Origin: a virus
Taxonomy: Duplodnaviria > Heunggongvirae > Uroviricota > Caudoviricetes
Virus record (IMG/VR): IMGVR_UViG_2558860170_000007
Reading direction: 5' to 3' (one strand)
DNA length: 48,271 nt
Shown: one piece after another, positions 25,784-47,283 of the stretch
Layout of the letters: every line of letters starts with the position of its first letter
Numbering within the stretch: the first letter of the stretch is position 1
Position numbers and translations under genes: made by a program
Notes under the pieces: model-generated
What the model was told of the DNA's origin: nothing
What the model saw: the letters and a program-made list of their open reading frames with translations, nothing else
Databases searched by the model: none

Positions 25784-29464
<3,681 letters not shown>

Positions 29465-29490
<26 letters not shown>

Positions 29491-35335: not shown

Positions 35336-36103
35336 GGTGATGCTGCCAACTTACTGATTTAGTGTATGATGGTGTTTTTGAGGTGCTCCAGTGGCTTCTG
35401 TTTCTATCAGCTGTCCCTCCTGTTCAGCTACTGACGGGGTGGTGCGTAACGGCAAAAGCACTGCCGGACATCAGCGCTATCTCTGCTCTCACTGCCGTAA
35501 AACATGGCAACTGCAGTTCACTTACACCGCTTCTCAACCCGGTACGCACCAGAAAATCATTGATATGGCCATGAATGGCGTTGGATGCCGGGCAACTGCA
35601 CGCATTATGGGCGTTGGCCTCAACACGATTTTACGTCACTTAAAAAACTCAGGCCGCAGTCGGTAACCTCGCGCATACAGCCGGGCAGTGACGTCATCGT
35701 CTGCGCGGAAATGGACGAACAGTGGGGCTATGTCGGGGCTAAATCGCGCCAGCGCTGGCTGTTTTACGCGTATGACAGTCTCCGGAAGACGGTTGTTGCG
35801 CACGTATTCGGTGAACGCACTATGGCGACGCTGGGGCGTCTTATGAGCCTGCTGTCACCCTTTGACGTGGTGATATGGATGACGGATGGCTGGCCGCTGT
35901 ATGAATCCCGCCTGAAGGGAAAGCTGCACGTAATCAGCAAGCGATATACGCAGCGAATTGAGCGGCATAACCTGAATCTGAGGCAGCACCTGGCACGGCT
36001 GGGACGGAAGTCGCTGTCGTTCTCAAAATCGGTGGAGCTGCATGACAAAGTCATCGGGCATTATCTGAACATAAAACACTATCAATAAGTTGGAGTCATT
36101 ACC
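35336..36103 (+). mobile_element. IS1 (768 bp), complete copy with 8-bp target duplication
   Basis: IRL GGTGATGCTGCC at 35336, IRR ...GTCATTACC ending 36103; insA 35391..35666 and insB 35585..36088; direct repeat CCAATTTT at 35328-35335 and 36104-36111. Confidence 0.95.
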
Positions 36104-36493
36104 CCAATTTTTTACGTACGTAAACCACTAAATGATATTTGCGAGAATGCTACCGAGTATTGAAAACACCACTACAAATACATAAGCAAATCCCAACAAA
36201 TAACCAACAAATAATTTCCAGTGTTATTTTTAGCCGGTTTAAATTGAACCTTCAAATTATAGAGCACTTATAAATAACAGCCGTTAATATAAATTGGCTA
36301 ATAGATTTATTTTTATTCAGCCAAGAGCCATGAATAGGATTCGATAGAAAAAAGTTCAGATAAAAATAGAGATCTACTTCACAAATCAAACGAGAAACCA
36401 AAACTTACATCTTGAAATAATCACATTGATTAGATGAATATTTATCGCGCAGTGACATCATTTTTTAATAATAGTTCAAAAAAAGGGCTCACG

Positions 36494-37576
36494 ATGAAAA
36501 AATTAACAGTGGCAATTTCTGCTGTAGCTGCATCAGTACTGATGGCGATGTCTGCTCAGGCAGCTGAAATTTATAATAAAGACAGTAACAAGCTGGATCT
36601 GTACGGGAAAGTTAATGCTAAGCACTACTTCTCCTCTAATGATGCAGATGATGGTGATACTACTTATGCCCGTCTTGGCTTCAAAGGTGAAACCCAAATC
36701 AACGATCAACTGACTGGTTTCGGTCAGTGGGAATATGAATTCAAAGGCAACCGCGCTGAATCTCAAGGTTCCTCCAAAGATAAAACCCGTCTTGCCTTCG
36801 CTGGCCTGAAATTCGGTGACTACGGCTCCATCGATTACGGCCGTAACTACGGTGTAGCATACGACATCGGTGCGTGGACTGACGTCCTGCCAGAATTCGG
36901 TGGTGACACTTGGACTCAAACAGATGTGTTCATGACTGGTCGCACCACTGGTGTTGCAACTTATCGTAACAACGACTTCTTTGGTCTGGTTGATGGTCTG
37001 AACTTTGCTGCTCAGTATCAGGGTAAAAATGACCGCACTGACGTAACTGAAGCTAATGGTGATGGTTTCGGTTTCTCCACTACTTATGAGTATGAAGGAT
37101 TCGGTGTAGGTGCAACCTATGCTAAATCTGACCGCACTAATAATCAGGTTATCTACGGTAACAACAGCCTGAATGCATCTGGTCAAAATGCTGAAGTATG
37201 GGCAGCTGGTCTGAAATATGATGCGAACAACATCTATCTGGCTACCACCTATTCTGAAACCCAGAACATGACTGTTTTTGGTAATAACCATATTGCCAAC
37301 AAAGCACAAAACTTCGAAGTAGTTGCACAATATCAGTTCGACTTCGGTCTGCGTCCGTCCGTTGCTTACCTGCAATCTAAAGGAAAAGACTTGGGTGCGT
37401 GGGGTGATCAGGACCTGGTTGAATATATTGATGTAGGTGCAACCTATTACTTCAACAAAAATATGTCCACTTTTGTTGATTACAAAATCAACCTGATTGA
37501 TAAGAGCGATTTCACGAAAGCATCTGGCGTTGCTACCGATGATATCGTTGCTGTAGGTATGGTTTACCAGTTCTAA
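36494..37576 (+). CDS. nmpC: Prophage-encoded general porin NmpC/OmpD-type (OmpC/OmpF family), apparently intact
   Basis: Signal peptide [23 protein letters not shown] then [16 protein letters not shown]...; C-terminal ...VGMVYQF. Start taken at MKKLTV (ORF track starts 20 codons upstream). Confidence 0.85.
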
Positions 37577-39902: not shown

Positions 39903-40280
39903 ATGACCAACAAAGAAAACAAAGATAAATATATTAACAAGTTCAAGAAAGAGCTTTCAAAATATATACAACCAACTGCTGGAGTGGACATTCAATTATT
40001 TAACTCTAAGGATGGTGGTGGTGTAATTAAAGCCACTTTGAATAGAAGTGGAAAAAGAAAATCATCTATTGCTGGTAATTTTACTAAATTAGGTGAGGCA
40101 ATTACCTCGAGTGGGCAGAGGGTTTTTGGTGGTGATCTATCAAATGTGAATTTTTACGGAACAAATACGATTTTTGATGGAGATACAATATTTTTAATTA
40201 AATCACCTGATTCAGAGGAGTGGTCATCACAAAAAGCTTCCAAAGACGTAGAGGGCATCGTATTTGGAGGGAAAAAATGA
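39903..40280 (+). CDS. Uncharacterised small soluble protein, first gene of an AT-rich two-gene cassette
   Basis: 125 aa; Lys-rich N-terminus, Gly-rich motifs (SKDGGGV, VFGGD, IFDGD, VFGGKK); no TM segment; TATACT -10-like hexamer at 39861-39866 upstream; no family recognised. Confidence 0.6.
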   Translation: MTNKENKDKYINKFKKELSKYIQPTAGVDIQLFNSKDGGGVIKATLNRSGKRKSSIAGNFTKLGEAITSSGQRVFGGDLSNVNFYGTNTIFDGDTIFLIKSPDSEEWSSQKASKDVEGIVFGGKK

Positions 40281-40705
40281 TTAACATTACTACTAAGGAT
40301 GGCACTCAAGTCAGTGGTGAAGTAAGAGATCTAGTAATTCTTCTTGAAACTGATGGAAAAACGGTGTCTGATTATTTGCAGCCAATCCCTCCCAAAAAAG
40401 ATACACACTGGAGCATGATTTTCATTCCGGTAGCAATTTATATACTACTTAATCTTGTATACATTATTGCTCACCCATTATTTCCTGAAAAATATCTAAA
40501 AACATCAACATCTATATTTCTATTCATTTCCTTCATATTAAGTGCAATAGTAGCATATTTTGTTTTCCATAAGCATAAATCTGCCACTCTATCCATATGC
40601 AGCTTAGTGTTCTTAGTGTTAATTGTAGGTGCTAACGTAGGGTTTATCAGTTACAGCGACCTAACACAAAAAGCGACGCAAAAATTAGATAGTTTGTCTA
40701 AATAA
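40277..40705 (+). CDS. Uncharacterised small membrane protein (about 3 TM helices), second gene of the cassette
   Basis: 142 aa from the ATG at 40277 (GGAGGG Shine-Dalgarno 5 nt upstream; ATGA overlap with the stop of the upstream gene); about 45-aa soluble N-terminus then three hydrophobic helices. The ORF track gives an upstream alternative start at 40220. Confidence 0.6.
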   Translation: MINITTKDGTQVSGEVRDLVILLETDGKTVSDYLQPIPPKKDTHWSMIFIPVAIYILLNLVYIIAHPLFPEKYLKTSTSIFLFISFILSAIVAYFVFHKHKSATLSICSLVFLVLIVGANVGFISYSDLTQKATQKLDSLSK

Positions 40706-41144
40706 TTATGTTGCCATGCGAAGTATGCATGGCTGCATGTCTGCCTTCCATTTAAAATGGGCTAAGACCTATAACCCTAAATATTATTCTTTATTATCTT
40801 CTTTACCACTTCGGTGATGCTGCCAACTTACTGATTTAGTGTATGATGGTGTTTTTGAGGTGCTCCAGTGGCTTCTGTTTCTATCAGCTGTCCCTCCTGT
40901 TCAGCTACTGACGGGGTGGTGCGTAACGGCAAAAGCACTGCCGGACATCAGCGCTATCTCTGCTCTCACTGCCGTAAAACATGGCAACTGCAGTTCACTT
41001 ACACCGCTTCTCAACCCGGTACGCACCAGAAAATCATTGATATTGTCAGCGCCAGTGATATAAGACGGTAATTCGCCATTTGGATTGTCCGCTCCACCCA
41101 ACATGTTGTTTCCTTAAGGTTCTCACACCAGAAAGGACATCAAC

Positions 41145-43114
<1,970 letters not shown>

Positions 43115-43714
43115 CGAAAGTATTTAGCGGGCATGAAAATGGCAAATAACGGTCAAACATCGTGGCGTTGACAATATGGCCATGAATGGCGTTGGATGCC
43201 GGGCAACTGCACGCATTATGGGCGTTGGCCTCAACACGATTTTACGTCACTTAAAAAACTCAGGCCGCAGTCGGTAACCTCGCGCATACAGCCGGGCAGT
43301 GACGTCATCGTCTGCGCGGAAATGGACGAACAGTGGGGCTATGTCGGGGCTAAATCGCGCCAGCGCTGGCTGTTTTACGCGTATGACAGTCTCCGGAAGA
43401 CGGTTGTTGCGCACGTATTCGGTGAACGCACTATGGCGACGCTGGGGCGTCTTATGAGCCTGCTGTCACCCTTTGACGTGGTGATATGGATGACGGATGG
43501 CTGGCCGCTGTATGAATCCCGCCTGAAGGGAAAGCTGCACGTAATCAGCAAGCGATATACGCAGCGAATTGAGCGGCATAACCTGAATCTGAGGCAGCAC
43601 CTGACACGGCTGGGACGGAAGTCGCTGTCGTTCTCAAAATCGGTGGAGCTGCATGACAAAGTCATCGGGCATTATCTGAACATAAAACACTATCAATAAG
43701 TTGGAGTCATTACC

Positions 43715-43776
43715 CGCTTGCAGTAACGGCGAAAGGGGCAATGACAGCGCTGCCATGTCGACAAGAACTGGAATAG
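43715..43776 (+). pseudogene. cscK: Fructokinase CscK, 3'-terminal fragment (last 20 codons)
   Basis: Frame ...ALAVTAKGAMTALPCRQELE-stop directly after the IS1 right end; begins with the 9-bp sequence CGCTTGCAG that is also found (inverted) beside the IS1 at 48052-48060. Confidence 0.6.
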
Positions 43777-43847
43777 TGAGAAGTAAACGGCGAAGTCGCT
43801 CTTATCTCTAAATAGGACGTGAATTTTTTAACGACAGGTAGGTAATT

Positions 43848-45095
43848 ATGGCACTGAATATTCCATTCAGAAATGCGTACTATCGTTTTGCATCCAGTTA
43901 CTCATTTCTCTTTTTTATTTCCTGGTCGCTGTGGTGGTCGTTATACGCTATTTGGCTGAAAGGACATCTAGGATTGACAGGGACGGAATTAGGTACACTT
44001 TATTCGGTCAACCAGTTTACCAGCATTCTATTTATGATGTTCTACGGCATCGTTCAGGATAAACTCGGTCTGAAGAAACCGCTCATCTGGTGTATGAGTT
44101 TCATCCTGGTCTTGACCGGACCGTTTATGATTTACGTTTATGAACCGTTACTGCAAAGCAATTTTTCTGTAGGTCTAATTCTGGGAGCGCTCTTTTTTGG
44201 CCTGGGGTATCTGGCGGGATGCGGTTTGCTTGACAGCTTCACCGAAAAAATGGCGCGAAATTTTCATTTCGAATATGGAACAGCGCGCGCCTGGGGATCT
44301 TTTGGCTATGCTATTGGCGCGTTCTTTGCCGGCATATTTTTTAGTATCAGTCCCCATATCAACTTCTGGTTGGTCTCGCTATTTGGCGCTGTATTTATGA
44401 TGATCAACATGTGTTTTAAAGATAAGGATCACCAGTGCGTAGCGGCGGATGCGGGAGGGGTAAAAAAAGAGGATTTTATCGCAGTTTTCAAGGATCGAAA
44501 CTTCTGGGTTTTCGTCATATTTATTGTGGGGACGTGGTCTTTCTATAACATTTTTGATCAACAACTTTTTCCTGTCTTTTATGCAGGTTTATTCGAATCA
44601 CACGATGTAGGAACGCGCCTGTATGGTTATCTCAACTCATTCCAGGTGGTACTCGAAGCGCTATGCATGGCGATTATTCCTTTCTTTGTGAATCGGGTAG
44701 GGCCAAAAAATGCATTACTTATCGGTGTTGTGATTATGGCGTTGCGTATCCTTTCCTGCGCGCTGTTCGTTAACCCCTGGATTATTTCATTAGTGAAGCT
44801 GTTACATGCCATTGAGGTTCCACTTTGTGTCATATCCGTCTTCAAATACAGCGTGGCAAATTTTGATAAGCGCCTGTCGTCGACGATCTTTCTGATTGGT
44901 TTTCAAATTGCCAGTTCGCTTGGGATTGTGCTGCTTTCAACGCCGACTGGGATACTCTTTGACCACGCAGGCTACCAGACAGTTTTCTTCGCAATTTCGG
45001 GTATTGTCTGCCTAATGTTGCTATTTGGCATTTTCTTCCTGAGTAAAAAACGCGAGCAAATAGTTATGGAAACGCCTGTACCTTCAGCAATATAG
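43848..45095 (+). CDS. cscB: Sucrose:H+ symporter CscB (LacY-family oligosaccharide/H+ symporter)
   Basis: 415 aa, 12 predicted TM helices, MALNIPFRNAYYRFASSYSFLFFISWSLWWSLYAIWLKGHLGLTG... recalled as CscB; it is separated from the 5' part of cscK and from the csc promoter. Confidence 0.85.
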   Translation: MALNIPFRNAYYRFASSYSFLFFISWSLWWSLYAIWLKGHLGLTGTELGTLYSVNQFTSILFMMFYGIVQDKLGLKKPLIWCMSFILVLTGPFMIYVYEPLLQSNFSVGLILGALFFGLGYLAGCGLLDSFTEKMARNFHFEYGTARAWGSFGYAIGAFFAGIFFSISPHINFWLVSLFGAVFMMINMCFKDKDHQCVAADAGGVKKEDFIAVFKDRNFWVFVIFIVGTWSFYNIFDQQLFPVFYAGLFESHDVGTRLYGYLNSFQVVLEALCMAIIPFFVNRVGPKNALLIGVVIMALRILSCALFVNPWIISLVKLLHAIEVPLCVISVFKYSVANFDKRLSSTIFLIGFQIASSLGIVLLSTPTGILFDHAGYQTVFFAISGIVCLMLLFGIFFLSKKREQIVMETPVPSAI

Positions 45096-45535
45096 ACGTA
45101 AACTTTTCCGGTTGTTGTCGATATCTCCCTATCCCTCAACCGGAAAATAATAATACTAAAGTGCTTAGCCCGGCTAATAATCACCTAATCCAAACGCCTC
45201 ATTCATGTTCTGGTACAGTCGCTCAAATGTACTTCAGATGCGCGGTTCGCTGATTTCCAGGACATTGTCGTCATTCAGCGACCTGTCCCGTGTATCACGG
45301 TCCTGCGAATTCATCAAGGAATGCATTGCGGAGTGAAGTATCGAGTCACGCCATATTTCGCTATCAGGATTCTGTGTGATGGTTACATCGCCCGGCCCAG
45401 GGCTGTTTAGTCATCAGCGCTTTCTGACAGTGCTGAGATTTCAACCTGTTGCAGTAAAAATGAGTAGATATAAGGCAAGTGTGCTGCCAAACCCATCTTT
45501 TACGGGGTGAAGGTAGATTTCGTTTGAAGGGTATC

Positions 45536-45550
45536 TGGTGTCCCCTGCAG
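45536..45550 (-). repeat. att-like copy of the argW 3' end (15 nt, CTGCAGGGGACACCA)
   Basis: Exact 15-nt match to the last 15 nt of argW (2635-2649) in inverted orientation; partial similarity extends a few more bases. Confidence 0.55.
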
Positions 45551-45623
45551 ACATCTACTTGAGGCGGCAGGGGATTGATTGGAATGCTGTTTTTTAGATT
45601 TGAAAAATATTTTACCCGCTATT

Positions 45624-45824
45624 TTACCCATTGGCGCGGCTTAAGAGCTTATTTTTGAATTCACAATGGTCACGATATAACCATCTTGCTCGTCCGTGGA
45701 TAACTTTGGCTTTAGGCAGGTCGCCGGACTTAATCCGGTCATAGATGAAGGTCTTACCGAAGCCAGTATCAGCCATGATGAATTTCAAATCAACCAGTGA
45801 ATCAGGTTGTAGTTCGTGTTGCAT
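45624..45824 (-). CDS. alpA: AlpA-family small DNA-binding protein (prophage regulatory/excisionase-like HTH)
   Basis: 66-aa ORF; ...GFGKTFIYDRIKSGDLPKAKVIHGRARWLYRDHCEF... resembles the AlpA/Xis HTH family; the start may be the internal Met at 45779. Confidence 0.6.
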   Translation of the reverse strand: MQHELQPDSLVDLKFIMADTGFGKTFIYDRIKSGDLPKAKVIHGRARWLYRDHCEFKNKLLSRANG

Positions 45825-45843
45825 GAGTGCTATCTCCGAATAT

Positions 45844-45858
45844 GGAATCGAACCTGCA
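45844..45858 (-). repeat. Second argW-like fragment (T-arm region, GCAGGTTCGATTCC)
   Basis: Reverse complement reads ...CTGATTTGCAGGTTCGATTCC, matching the argW T-arm (2617-2634) apart from a few upstream mismatches; lies immediately upstream of the alpA-like start. Confidence 0.45.
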
Positions 45859-45946
45859 AATCAGGCAATAAAAAGCCGCATTGATGCAGCAATGGTAGGT
45901 CTGGATATCTTGAGAAATGAACAGGCCTCATCGAGTGTGAGGCGGG

Positions 45947-46291
45947 TTAGTCCTTGCGTAGCTCGCTGATTCTTCTGTAAGTCTCTGGTGCTTTGTTCCC
46001 GTACGTCTTCATTTCAGACTTCAACAGAGCAACGAGTGAATCCCATTCGTTGAGGATTCCTTTGAATGCCGGAACGCGCTTTGCAACCTTGTCGAATGAA
46101 TCTCTGATTTCTGGAATCTGCTCAACAAGTGCAACGCATCGCCGAAAGTCTGCTGCGTCATGGGGAGCGCCGAAGTGATGACCATAGATATTCTTTTTCA
46201 GGCCACATGCGATTGAGGCAAGAGTTGCGCTACTGATGCCGACATCGCCAGTTGATTGCCATTTCAAAACCTTCATAGCCAAATCTGACAT
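45947..46291 (-). CDS. Hypothetical protein (114 aa), no family recognised
   Basis: ORF with plausible start; divergently arranged with the downstream membrane protein gene. Confidence 0.4.
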   Translation of the reverse strand: MSDLAMKVLKWQSTGDVGISSATLASIACGLKKNIYGHHFGAPHDAADFRRCVALVEQIPEIRDSFDKVAKRVPAFKGILNEWDSLVALLKSEMKTYGNKAPETYRRISELRKD

Positions 46292-46532
46292 TTCTTGTCT
46301 CCATAAAACAAAACTCGCCGTAGCGAGCTCAGATAAAAGAAATCCCCGTCAGTGCGAGGATGCTGTTCATTGCTGCTATACACTTTTTTGCTCTCAACGT
46401 AAGCGGTAGCCCATTCTGTTGGGTTGGTCAGTTGCTTTTAGGAAATGCTCTTTACCCCTTAAACGTCGGCTGAAAGAGCTAAAATCCATGCAAAAAATTT
46501 ACGCAATTTTGTGTATTATTGTGCAGTAAGTA

Positions 46533-47135
46533 ATGAGCTATTTTCTGTGCAAAAAATGGATGATAAATTTGTCCGGGGCAGGAAAAATTTTATGGGCGCT
46601 AAACATGAAAAAAGATTCGTATCCTTATTTGATTTGCATGACAGTTTCAGGGCTGATCTTTATTTTCCTTTTCTTCTGGTGGCGGGCAGATATCTACAGG
46701 GTCACGTTTCTTAATCAGAGTATATCCCACTATTACATTCTGTTTAGCATGGGAATAGCTTTTCTGTTATCTCTGTTTTGGGTTAAGAAGGGGATAGTAA
46801 AACAAAGCGGCTGGAAGAGTCTGTCAGCATACCTTAAGGTTTATGCAGGGATATGCATATTTTCTGGATTTTTTCTGATTATACCCCTTACAACACTAAC
46901 TTATTTTTTGCCTGGAGAGACATCGTCTTATGTTGCACCGTATCGGTATACTTCCGGTAGTTCAAAAAGTTGTTCTGGAGCTGAGGTGGATGACCCCGAT
47001 CTACATGAGAATATTCGCATTTGCTATCCGTATGGCAATTATGAGTACGATAATATTATCTATGTTGAAAAGAAAATTAATACATTAGGTGCGGTAGTGA
47101 CATATGCACAGACCGCGCGTGATGATACTGAATGA
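46533..47135 (+). CDS. Hypothetical membrane protein (about 4 N-terminal TM helices plus Cys/Tyr-rich C-terminal domain)
   Basis: 200-aa AT-rich ORF; start uncertain (alternatives at 46560 and 46605); C-terminal region contains ...CSGAEVDDPDLHENIRICYPYGNYEYDNIIYVEKK... Confidence 0.45.
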   Translation: MSYFLCKKWMINLSGAGKILWALNMKKDSYPYLICMTVSGLIFIFLFFWWRADIYRVTFLNQSISHYYILFSMGIAFLLSLFWVKKGIVKQSGWKSLSAYLKVYAGICIFSGFFLIIPLTTLTYFLPGETSSYVAPYRYTSGSSKSCSGAEVDDPDLHENIRICYPYGNYEYDNIIYVEKKINTLGAVVTYAQTARDDTE

Positions 47136-47283
47136 GATAGTATATAGCGGGCAAGTTTTAGTTAATTTATCGAGGTAATATAATTTACCTCGACTCGTTT
47201 ATTCTGGTATGAATATTTCGCTTTACGATCGATTTTTATCTGATGATATCATGCGGTTTTCATATACTGACTTACTGTCTTTT

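Follow-up and report, generated by a model that had tools for sequence, protein, structure and literature searches.

A known excisionase and two conserved, uncharacterised accessory genes at the probable attR end of an IS1-rearranged lambdoid prophage

The 48,271-nt stretch of viral DNA analysed here (the window; IMG/VR record IMGVR_UViG_2558860170_000007, Caudoviricetes) carries, near its right end, three small open reading frames (ORFs) between the gene cscB and a copy of the insertion sequence IS1, which we identify as a known excisionase, TorI, and two accessory prophage genes, conserved and uncharacterised, that phage 434 also carries. The trio is probably the attR-proximal end of a lambdoid prophage integrated at argW, severed from the rest of the phage by IS1 activity, and we are highly confident of the anatomy of the region and the identities of its genes. 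The third gene encodes a membrane protein of an undescribed family, for which we tentatively propose a role in superinfection exclusion or anti-phage defence. A preliminary description, whose observations were confirmed in part and whose interpretation was supported in part, had regarded the three as island-borne accessory genes; they are indeed horizontally acquired and lie beside an attachment site, but their carrier is a lambdoid prophage at argW and not a generic island.

The three ORFs lie between cscB (43848-45095) and the next IS1 (47284-48051) at the positions and on the strands that had been reported for them:

45624..45824, minus strand: torI, 66 aa, excisionase (recombination directionality factor) and inhibitor of TorR, identical to PDB 1Z4H at all 66 residues
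45947..46291, minus strand: ORF114, 114 aa, phage 434 ORF114 family (phrog_1229), early-left-operon gene, 96% identical to 434 ORF114
46533..47135, plus strand: membrane protein ORF from the alternative start used by RefSeq, 200 aa
46605..47135, plus strand: membrane protein coding sequence from the start indicated by homologues, 176 aa

A megablast search of complete E. coli genomes recovers 45300-47290 at full length and 98-99.6% identity in 116 of them, where the first gene is annotated torI and the other two as 'hypothetical protein'. Shigella sonnei is a recorded source of the exact 200-aa sequence, which stands for 873 sequences, from this species and E. coli, that cluster at 90% identity. 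Taken with the density of IS1 copies, this record suggests S. sonnei as the probable origin of the window. Conservation, which the preliminary description had named as a check, extends to each gene: TorI is identical to 1Z4H, ORF114 has tblastn matches in 275 phage records, and the membrane ORF shows a ratio of nonsynonymous to synonymous substitution rates (dN/dS) of 0.10-0.25 against diverged copies, where not saturated. Such conservation of all three rules out chance ORFs. The 114-aa protein and the membrane protein had not been recognised earlier, and this stands, as Pfam, NCBIfam, PADLOC and the PDB assign no function to either; TorI is a known protein.

We assign the trio to the attR-proximal end of a lambdoid prophage because of the gene order in un-rearranged E. 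coli genomes, which runs dsdA-(csc or dsdXC)-torI-ORF114-membrane gene (plus strand)-TraR/DksA gene and continues ...-exo-bet-gam-kil-cIII-...-N-cI-cro-cII-O-P-ren-nin. The partner end of the same prophage lies at the left of the window, where intS is followed by lambda-type late genes, including the gpA terminase (27565-29490), and then by the nin-region genes RusA, YbcO and antiterminator Q at 37.8-39.1 kb. The features that define the two ends are as follows:

2575..3968, plus strand: partner prophage end, comprising argW, the attL core and intS; attL primers match
2575-2649, plus strand: argW, tRNA-Arg(CCT)
2635-2649, plus strand: attL core, the argW 3' end
2775-3968, plus strand: intS, tyrosine integrase with integrase Pfam domains
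45515..45647, minus strand: arm region of attR, which runs into the 3' end of torI; its left limit is approximate, and a published primer match places it
45536..45550, minus strand: attR core, reverse-complement copy of the argW 3' end (CTGCAGGGGACACCA), exact 15-nt match to 2635-2649

The first gene of the trio had been called an AlpA-like regulator and is in fact TorI. Its 66 residues are those of the PDB entry titled 'Tor inhibition protein', its product matches the excisionase family phrog_66, and RefSeq applies the torI label in every matching E. coli genome. The AlpA family of Pfam (PF05930, Phage_AlpA) scored 12.7 bits against a cut-off of 21, and HTH_17 also fell below its threshold, at 16.9 bits against 27. 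TorI, a DNA-binding winged-helix protein, shares with AlpA only a related fold class, so that 'AlpA-like' is loosely right, and its match to mad1 in PADLOC-DB 2.0 (E=7.6e-14) reflects only the common Xis-like helix-turn-helix. Previous work established TorI as the recombination directionality factor (RDF) of KplE1, identical in HK620 and Sf6, and as a protein that also binds the response regulator TorR; both activities, promotion of IntS-dependent excision and TorR binding, belong to the identical K-12 protein (PMC3509656, PMC2951348). Prophages of the KplE1/HK620 type carry the TorI excisionase and integrate at argW. With IntS and IHF, TorI would direct recombination between attL and attR, and it could also bind TorR.

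The attachment sites agree with this assignment. The att core CTGCAGGGGACACCA agrees with the published KplE1 core CTGCAGGGGACACCAT (PMC2951348) at 15 of its 16 nt, published KplE1 attL primers match at 2615-2635 and 2811-2834, and the published attR-IHF2 primer matches exactly at 45628-45647, the published attR fragment being 135 bp long. Membership among RDFs is further indicated by position, as torI adjoins attR while its cognate intS adjoins attL and argW. The window thereby shares with the KplE1 (CPS-53)/HK620/Sf6 module (IntS, TorI/HkaC/P18, argW attL/attR) an identical TorI, the same core derived from the argW 3' end, sites for the published primers, and the layout of intS by attL and torI by attR (PMC2951348, PMC3509656). 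Two differences set it apart: the prophage body is lambda-like (gpA terminase, Q, RusA) and not the K-12 KplE1 remnant, and attR is inverted relative to attL through an IS1-mediated rearrangement, which would leave the element not excisable by the module. The att-like repeat of the preliminary description is thus a real 15-bp copy of the argW 3' end (45536-45550), though in inverted orientation with respect to the argW/attL copy at 2635-2649.

This inversion can be traced to the insertion sequences of the window, which holds three complete IS1 copies and a fourth split by a 2.13-kb IS21-family element. Two of the four, one of them the split copy, flank the segment 43715-47283 in opposite orientations:

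40813-41043: remainder of the left, split IS1
41044-43173: IS21-family element within the left IS1, with IstA at 41145-42317, IstB at 42314-43114 and a 4-bp ATAT duplication
43174..43714, plus strand: left IS1, inner part, forming the left edge of the inverted segment
43715..43723, plus strand: 9-bp IS1 target CGCTTGCAG from cscK, with its reverse complement at 48052-48060
47284..48051, minus strand: right IS1, 768 bp, identical to the other IS1 copies, forming the right edge of the inverted segment and truncating the prophage 148 bp past the membrane gene

At the point where the right IS1 interrupts the window, phage 434 and intact E. coli prophages run on into the TraR/DksA gene. The inverted 3.6-kb segment holds the 3' part of cscK, cscB, attR, torI, ORF114 and the membrane gene, and the PfkB-kinase fragment at the right end of the window represents, on the minus strand, the 5' part of cscK. 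When the reverse complement of 48061-48271 is joined to 43715-43780, the result is a cscK C-terminus identical to that of E. coli CH4799, and the 9-mer CGCTTGCAG occurs once in intact cscK. Because cscK is split and the 9-bp target duplication is inverted, we conclude from the junctions that an IS1-mediated event inverted 43715-47283, which explains the opposite orientations of the attR and attL cores. On the outer side of the left IS1, the flank (TACCACTTC) differs from the expected partner AAAAGACAG, a mismatch that fits either replicative transposition or a later adjacent deletion; two IS1 copies recombining with each other, or replicative transposition within the molecule, may have produced the inversion itself.

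A deletion accompanies the inversion. Between the nin-region genes and the IS cluster we saw no repressor, N, O/P or recombination genes, and since the immunity, replication and early-left genes are absent before the IS cluster, we conclude that an IS-associated deletion took the leftward early promoter pL and everything between ren and the TraR/DksA gene. We infer that torI and ORF114 have, through the loss of pL, lost their native promoter here, and that the membrane gene alone retains its own signals. With attR inverted, recombination by IntS and TorI could only invert, and not excise, the DNA between the att sites.

Comparison with phage 434 places the two uncharacterised genes in a known context. 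In GenBank entry M60848 the annotation of 434 reads attP-int-xis-terminator t'I-ORF114-ORF55-terminator tL4, and beyond this lies a divergent partial 'ORF-22+', the beginning of the membrane gene; the publication on this region, cited in PMC13586616, is Baker et al. 1991 (New Biol 3:297). By DNA alignment, the window and 434 are near-identical (about 97% or more) from the t'I hairpin (~45873) to the IS1 junction at 47283, with ORF114 96% and the membrane gene 97.5% identical and with the t'I and tL4 hairpins and the terminator of the membrane gene all kept. ORF55 is missing from the window, deleted between short TCTCCA(A)TAAAA direct repeats, and IS1 ends the likeness on the right. To the left of t'I, the window has torI, and TorI/IntS, where 434 has a lambda-type xis and int, torI and xis being unrelated sequences. 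Three terminator-like hairpins on the leftward strand belong to this shared module:

45866..45893 (scan hairpin 45875-45890), minus strand: t'I-like terminator hairpin between ORF114 and torI, fold -8.1 kcal/mol
46311..46361, minus strand: two leftward terminator-like hairpins upstream of ORF114, from a terminator scan and folding
46311-46330, minus strand: first of the two, fold -11.9 kcal/mol
46342-46361, minus strand: second of the two, fold -8.6 kcal/mol, equal to 434 tL4 (M60848 t-L4 mapped via alignment)

The t'I-like hairpin coincides in position with t'-I of M60848 and marks the left edge of the module common to the window and 434. The interval 46292-46532 had been taken for a divergent promoter region shared by ORF114 and the membrane gene. 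Because it contains leftward hairpins that include tL4, and because a scan of both its strands found no sigma-70-like promoter, we read it on the leftward strand as the terminator region of the N-antiterminated pL operon and not as a shared divergent promoter.

ORF114 occupies the slot between tL4 and t'I/xis in the leftward early operon, a context also seen in intact E. coli prophages, and together with torI it is, on established lambda biology and this operon context, one of the last genes of the pL operon in an intact phage. There, transcription would run through tL4 into ORF114 and then, with torI, through t'I, so that ORF114 would be the final accessory gene of the exo-xis region of the N-antiterminated leftward operon. 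The lambda exo-xis genes (ea8.5, ea22, orf61, orf63, orf60a, orf73, orf55), which share this slot and this pL-driven, N-dependent transcription unit, are early genes that the phage can do without and that presumably influence either the lysis-lysogeny decision or host physiology (PMC3824215, PMC8614690), but ORF114 is homologous to none of them and is not treated in those two studies. It matches phrog_1229, a family with no assigned function, over residues 1-114 (E=1.8e-51). Its carriers range from Stx phages, P22-like Salmonella phages and PY54 to ~150 Vibrio phages and to Arthrobacter and Clavibacter phages, and its neighbours in phages are small early genes (Lar-like, exonuclease, methylase, DinI); in Vibrio phage K66 the homologue lies on the opposite strand within the tail module.

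The ORF114 protein is basic (pI 9.2), with invariant polar residues D45, D48, R51, C52, E61 and E93, and is modelled with confidence as an all-alpha fold, for which neither a PDB sequence search nor a comparison of the predicted fold returned a solved structure; against PADLOC-DB 2.0 it gave no match at E<=1. Six database proteins that fuse ORF114 with DUF550 (PF04447, a dATP/dGTP pyrophosphohydrolase), Erf, Kil or Ea22 were rejected as functional clues: they are chimeras whose joints sit at short shared motifs, which points to recombination or deletion between alternative genes of the same prophage region. From its exo-xis position we might guess that this presumably soluble protein is an accessory of host takeover or counter-defence, a guess that we consider unlikely to prove right.

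The product of the third gene had been described as a 200-aa protein. Its homologues, followed down to 43% identity, measure 166-189 aa, and every one of them starts at the equivalent of M25 (MKK[DY]SYP). Four codons upstream of this position, an E. coli P2-like copy carries an in-frame TAA; the Shine-Dalgarno sequence that precedes the start is good in the diverged copies and weak in the E. coli/434 version. On these three grounds, the common start, the upstream TAA and the Shine-Dalgarno sequences of the diverged copies, the gene most likely begins at 46605 and encodes 176 aa. In the model of this protein (pLDDT 86.9), three helices (5-29, 38-61 and 70-101) precede a beta domain of six strands (105-171); model and hydropathy agree on three hydrophobic helices and not the four or so proposed earlier. 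The N-terminus and loop 2 (+4) carry positive charges, the C-terminal domain, with 6 K/R to 12 D/E, is acidic, and by the positive-inside rule the protein probably adopts an N-in/C-out topology.

The C-terminal domain had been called Cys/Tyr-rich, which is right for tyrosine (9 Tyr) and not for cysteine, of which it has only two. Both of these, C123 and C140, are invariant and flank one beta hairpin of the model, which fits a periplasmic disulfide between them. The invariant residues of the family, the two cysteines included, concentrate in this domain, where mean identity is 65% against 44% in the transmembrane (TM) region, and phrog_1416 matches only the C-terminal 88 residues. The substitution ratios given above indicate that the family is under purifying selection. 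Searches by sequence or fold returned no relative in Pfam, PADLOC or the PDB, with no match at E<=1 to the defence models of PADLOC-DB 2.0, and we conclude that the protein represents an undescribed family.

Several properties mark the membrane gene as a probable moron, a cassette complete in itself, with upstream region, ORF and terminator, that lies on the strand opposite to its neighbours:

46470..46604, plus strand: conserved upstream region of the cassette, with ATTGTGCA(G)-like repeats at 46507-46527, conserved with E. coli and Salmonella P2-like copies
47170..47193, plus strand: intrinsic-terminator-like hairpin closing the cassette, -12.9 kcal/mol, z -4.6

Its GC content of 38.8%, against 47.5% for ORF114 and 56% for the late genes, confirms that the gene is AT-rich, as had been reported; the terminator hairpin is kept in 434 and in the E. 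coli P2-like copy; and the upstream 130 bp are conserved between lambdoid and P2-like copies. The deviant base composition, own terminator, presence/absence polymorphism and transfer between unrelated phages are those of morons, a concept exemplified by HK97 gp15, the first to be described (PMC3594210). We found no convincing consensus sigma-70 promoter for the cassette, by scan or by eye. The (A/T)ATTGTGCA(G)-like motif upstream of the gene, present in two copies here and in 434 and in three copies ~11 bp apart in a Salmonella P2-like prophage (about 5890-5925 of the locus), may be an operator or promoter element of the cassette.

The cassette assorts independently of its neighbours here. The gene is 97-98% identical to genes of phages 434, 2B8 and mEp332, and 986 of 5426 complete E. 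coli genomes (18%) hold copies that are near-identical or related; it appears in only 6 phage records, against the 275 of ORF114. It is found with three integration modules, namely lambda-type int/xis (434), an attλ-site prophage (O157:H7) and argW/TorI (here), and with or without ORF114 and ORF55; the O157:H7 cryptic prophage by ybhC, at the attλ site, has the membrane gene and no ORF114. ORF114 and the membrane gene had been presented as a divergent pair, but each occurs independently of the other.

An exhaustive profile search of 1.84 billion representatives returned a small, enterobacterial family of 61 representatives, uniform in architecture save for truncated fragments; a 3074-aa repeat protein was set aside as a spurious low-complexity match. 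We then sampled the genomic context of nine diverged homologues, six of which lie between the portal gene gpQ and the replication gene gpA of P2-like prophages in Salmonella, Klebsiella, Enterobacter, E. coli and a metagenome. Neighbours differ at every locus, with no conserved metabolic or regulatory partner, and a 119-aa gene beside the Salmonella P2-like copies was rejected on comparison as a relative of ORF114. Directly 3' of the membrane gene in an E. coli O103:H2 P2-like prophage (5765-6135) lies a frameshifted ead/Ea22-like fragment, a lambdoid exo-xis gene, which suggests that the cassette moved from the lambdoid exo-xis region into the P2 hotspot. In the gpQ-gpA hotspot of a Klebsiella michiganensis P2-like prophage (2281-5623), the homologue stands beside genes for a 790-aa protein (weak AAA_16) and a 279-aa partner for which PHROG gives no function, and these two may be a separate, uncharacterised defence pair.

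We propose, by analogy and at rather less than an even chance, that the membrane protein is a prophage-expressed superinfection-exclusion or anti-phage protein that acts at the inner membrane through its periplasmic domain. We do so because most diverged copies sit in the gpQ-gpA hotspot, because the protein is SieA-like in size and architecture, and because the cassette fits the moron pattern. The gpQ-gpA locus holds old, tin and further anti-phage systems, and experiments have validated it as a hotspot of such systems (PMC9122126); P4 satellites are related elements, and 6 of 8 genes with no assigned function from their defence locus gave protection in tests against phages, and 15-32% of such proteins in P2 are computationally predicted to be antiviral (PMC13586616). 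P22 SieA resides in the inner membrane, a protein of 162-164 aa with three TM helices that blocks DNA injection (PMC10883804), and our protein, at 176 aa with three predicted helices, falls in its size class (about 160-200 aa, 3-4 TM). Like SieA and HK97 gp15, it would be a small inner-membrane protein encoded by a single prophage gene with its own expression signals, and with the HK97 gp15 type the cassette shares deviant GC, its own terminator and presence/absence polymorphism; it is also retained in degraded prophages. The product would insert in the inner membrane with its N-terminus inside and its conserved beta domain facing the periplasm, where the invariant cysteine pair would form a disulfide, and in a lysogen it would obstruct either the entry of phage DNA or a host envelope factor that phages require. 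A fuller version, in which the 176-aa protein founds an undescribed single-gene family of inner-membrane exclusion or anti-phage proteins acting through a predicted disulfide-stapled periplasmic beta domain, and in which ORF114 is secondarily a new-fold counter-defence or host-takeover protein, is in our judgement doubtful though worth stating.

A number of observations weigh against this proposal or set the gene apart from the systems with which it is compared. The window copy lies in a lambdoid exo-xis region and not in the P2 hotspot, and the hotspot carries non-defence genes too, among them partition systems and cytolethal distending toxin; ParM/StbA partition genes adjoin the membrane gene in two P2-like loci. 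The other three of the nine diverged homologues, from Enterobacter, Klebsiella and Cedecea, are solitary chromosomal genes outside prophages. Homology to P22 SieA was rejected (hhalign probability 0.2%), the SieA motif FxRYPxEAxxFNK, predicted to be cytoplasmic, is absent, and the conserved part of our protein is instead a predicted periplasmic beta domain with two cysteines. Homology to P22/lambda SieB was likewise rejected (BLASTP E=2, no match to a SieB PHROG), and no superinfection-exclusion PHROG or PADLOC model matched. Given the weak Shine-Dalgarno sequence before 46605 in the E. coli/434 version and the lack of a consensus promoter in our scan, expression in lysogens is an assumption. 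Unlike an arms-race protein, the family has a strongly conserved, predicted periplasmic domain, which is easier to reconcile with a conserved target in the host than with a variable one in phages, and for ORF114 nothing indicates a particular activity.

These same observations lend weight to a different role, in which the membrane protein is a lysogenic-conversion or host-fitness factor (for envelope-stress tolerance, resistance to colicins or envelope toxins, or transporter modulation) kept for its direct benefit to the host. The solitary chromosomal copies, the purifying selection on a highly conserved periplasmic domain, which suggests a conserved host target, the non-defence cargo of the P2 hotspot and the retention of a gene common in E. 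coli within cryptic prophages would all be expected of such a factor; yet Pfam matches to YebO, colicin immunity proteins or any other family are lacking, no conserved metabolic or regulatory gene stands alongside, and the majority of diverged copies occupy a locus enriched for anti-phage genes, so that we regard this role as unlikely while taking it seriously. An abortive-infection or toxin-type effector that permeabilises or depolarises the inner membrane when triggered, in the manner of RexB, SieB or holins, seems to us a good deal less plausible. A small polytopic membrane protein encoded alone in defence hotspots could be such an effector, and one P2-like copy lies beside a YafO toxin gene, another beside the AAA_16 ATPase gene of K. 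michiganensis; but neighbours vary by locus with no conserved sensor partner, similarity to SieB was not found, a large conserved, predicted periplasmic beta domain is atypical of holin-like effectors, and constitutive carriage in 18% of complete E. coli genomes together with the solitary chromosomal copies argues against toxicity.

Decay offers another account, in which ORF114 and the membrane ORF are non-functional debris of a prophage that is defective, IS-ridden and rearranged, has lost pL and leaves ORF114 and torI with no obvious promoter. This is improbable, as all three frames are intact and 96-100% identical to copies in viable phages (434, EC.P3, mEp phages), the membrane family is under apparent purifying selection, and the exact 200-aa sequence is recorded from Shigella sonnei at the head of its 873-sequence cluster. 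We consider it highly improbable that the three genes form one unit in which an AlpA-like regulator controls two effectors through one divergent promoter, common to both, at 46292-46532. The genes do lie side by side in the window, in 434 and in the 116 E. coli genomes, and TorI does bind DNA; but 434 carries a lambda-type xis in place of torI, the O157:H7 prophages hold the membrane gene without ORF114, the P2-like copies stand without torI and without ORF114, the numbers of phage records with ORF114 and with the membrane gene differ widely, and the intergenic region consists of leftward terminators, including the annotated 434 tL4, with no promoter predicted. To judge from these distributions, the three genes assort independently and are not one system, and the one-unit model is contradicted.

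Other features of the window and its relatives bear on the history of the locus. Between cscB and attR lies a DUF4942-family gene remnant (45234-45326, minus strand), annotated as a pseudogene in E. coli CH4799, which marks older mobile-element debris at the csc/argW junction. Two plus-strand ORFs before the IS cluster (about 39.6-40.8 kb), at 39903-40280 (phrog_18061) and 40277-40705 (phrog_16940, with hydrophobic segments), may be additional cargo of the moron or defence type. A full-length porin gene (Pfam Porin_1, E=3.7e-153) at 36434-37576, between an IS1 (35336-36103) and the Q antiterminator gene, has the appearance of the prophage-borne nmpC/Lc type. Literature searches by RefSeq accession or PHROG number returned nothing on the proteins described here; O157:H7 transcriptome papers mention CP-933K genes whose locus tags could not be mapped to the membrane gene.

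Much of what the region contains is textbook biology: IS1 has scrambled one end of a prophage, which comprises the excisionase, an accessory gene of the early operon and a probable moron. Its inverted attR is a clear example of the way in which IS activity can lock a prophage in place. Novelty is confined to the membrane protein, as an undescribed family and a candidate for exclusion or defence, and to ORF114, whose fold has no solved relative. ORF114, with a confidently predicted fold that lacks a structural relative and with conservation from enterobacterial to Vibrio and actinobacterial phages, is a reasonable target for structural and functional work. The membrane gene, which has no known domain, is present in the classical model phage 434 and in nearly a fifth of complete E. 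coli genomes, including O157:H7, and P2-like phages have repeatedly acquired it in an anti-phage hotspot that has been validated. Should it exclude phages, the small number of inner-membrane exclusion proteins characterised so far would gain a new family, and the gene would provide a handle on phage DNA's passage through the inner membrane.

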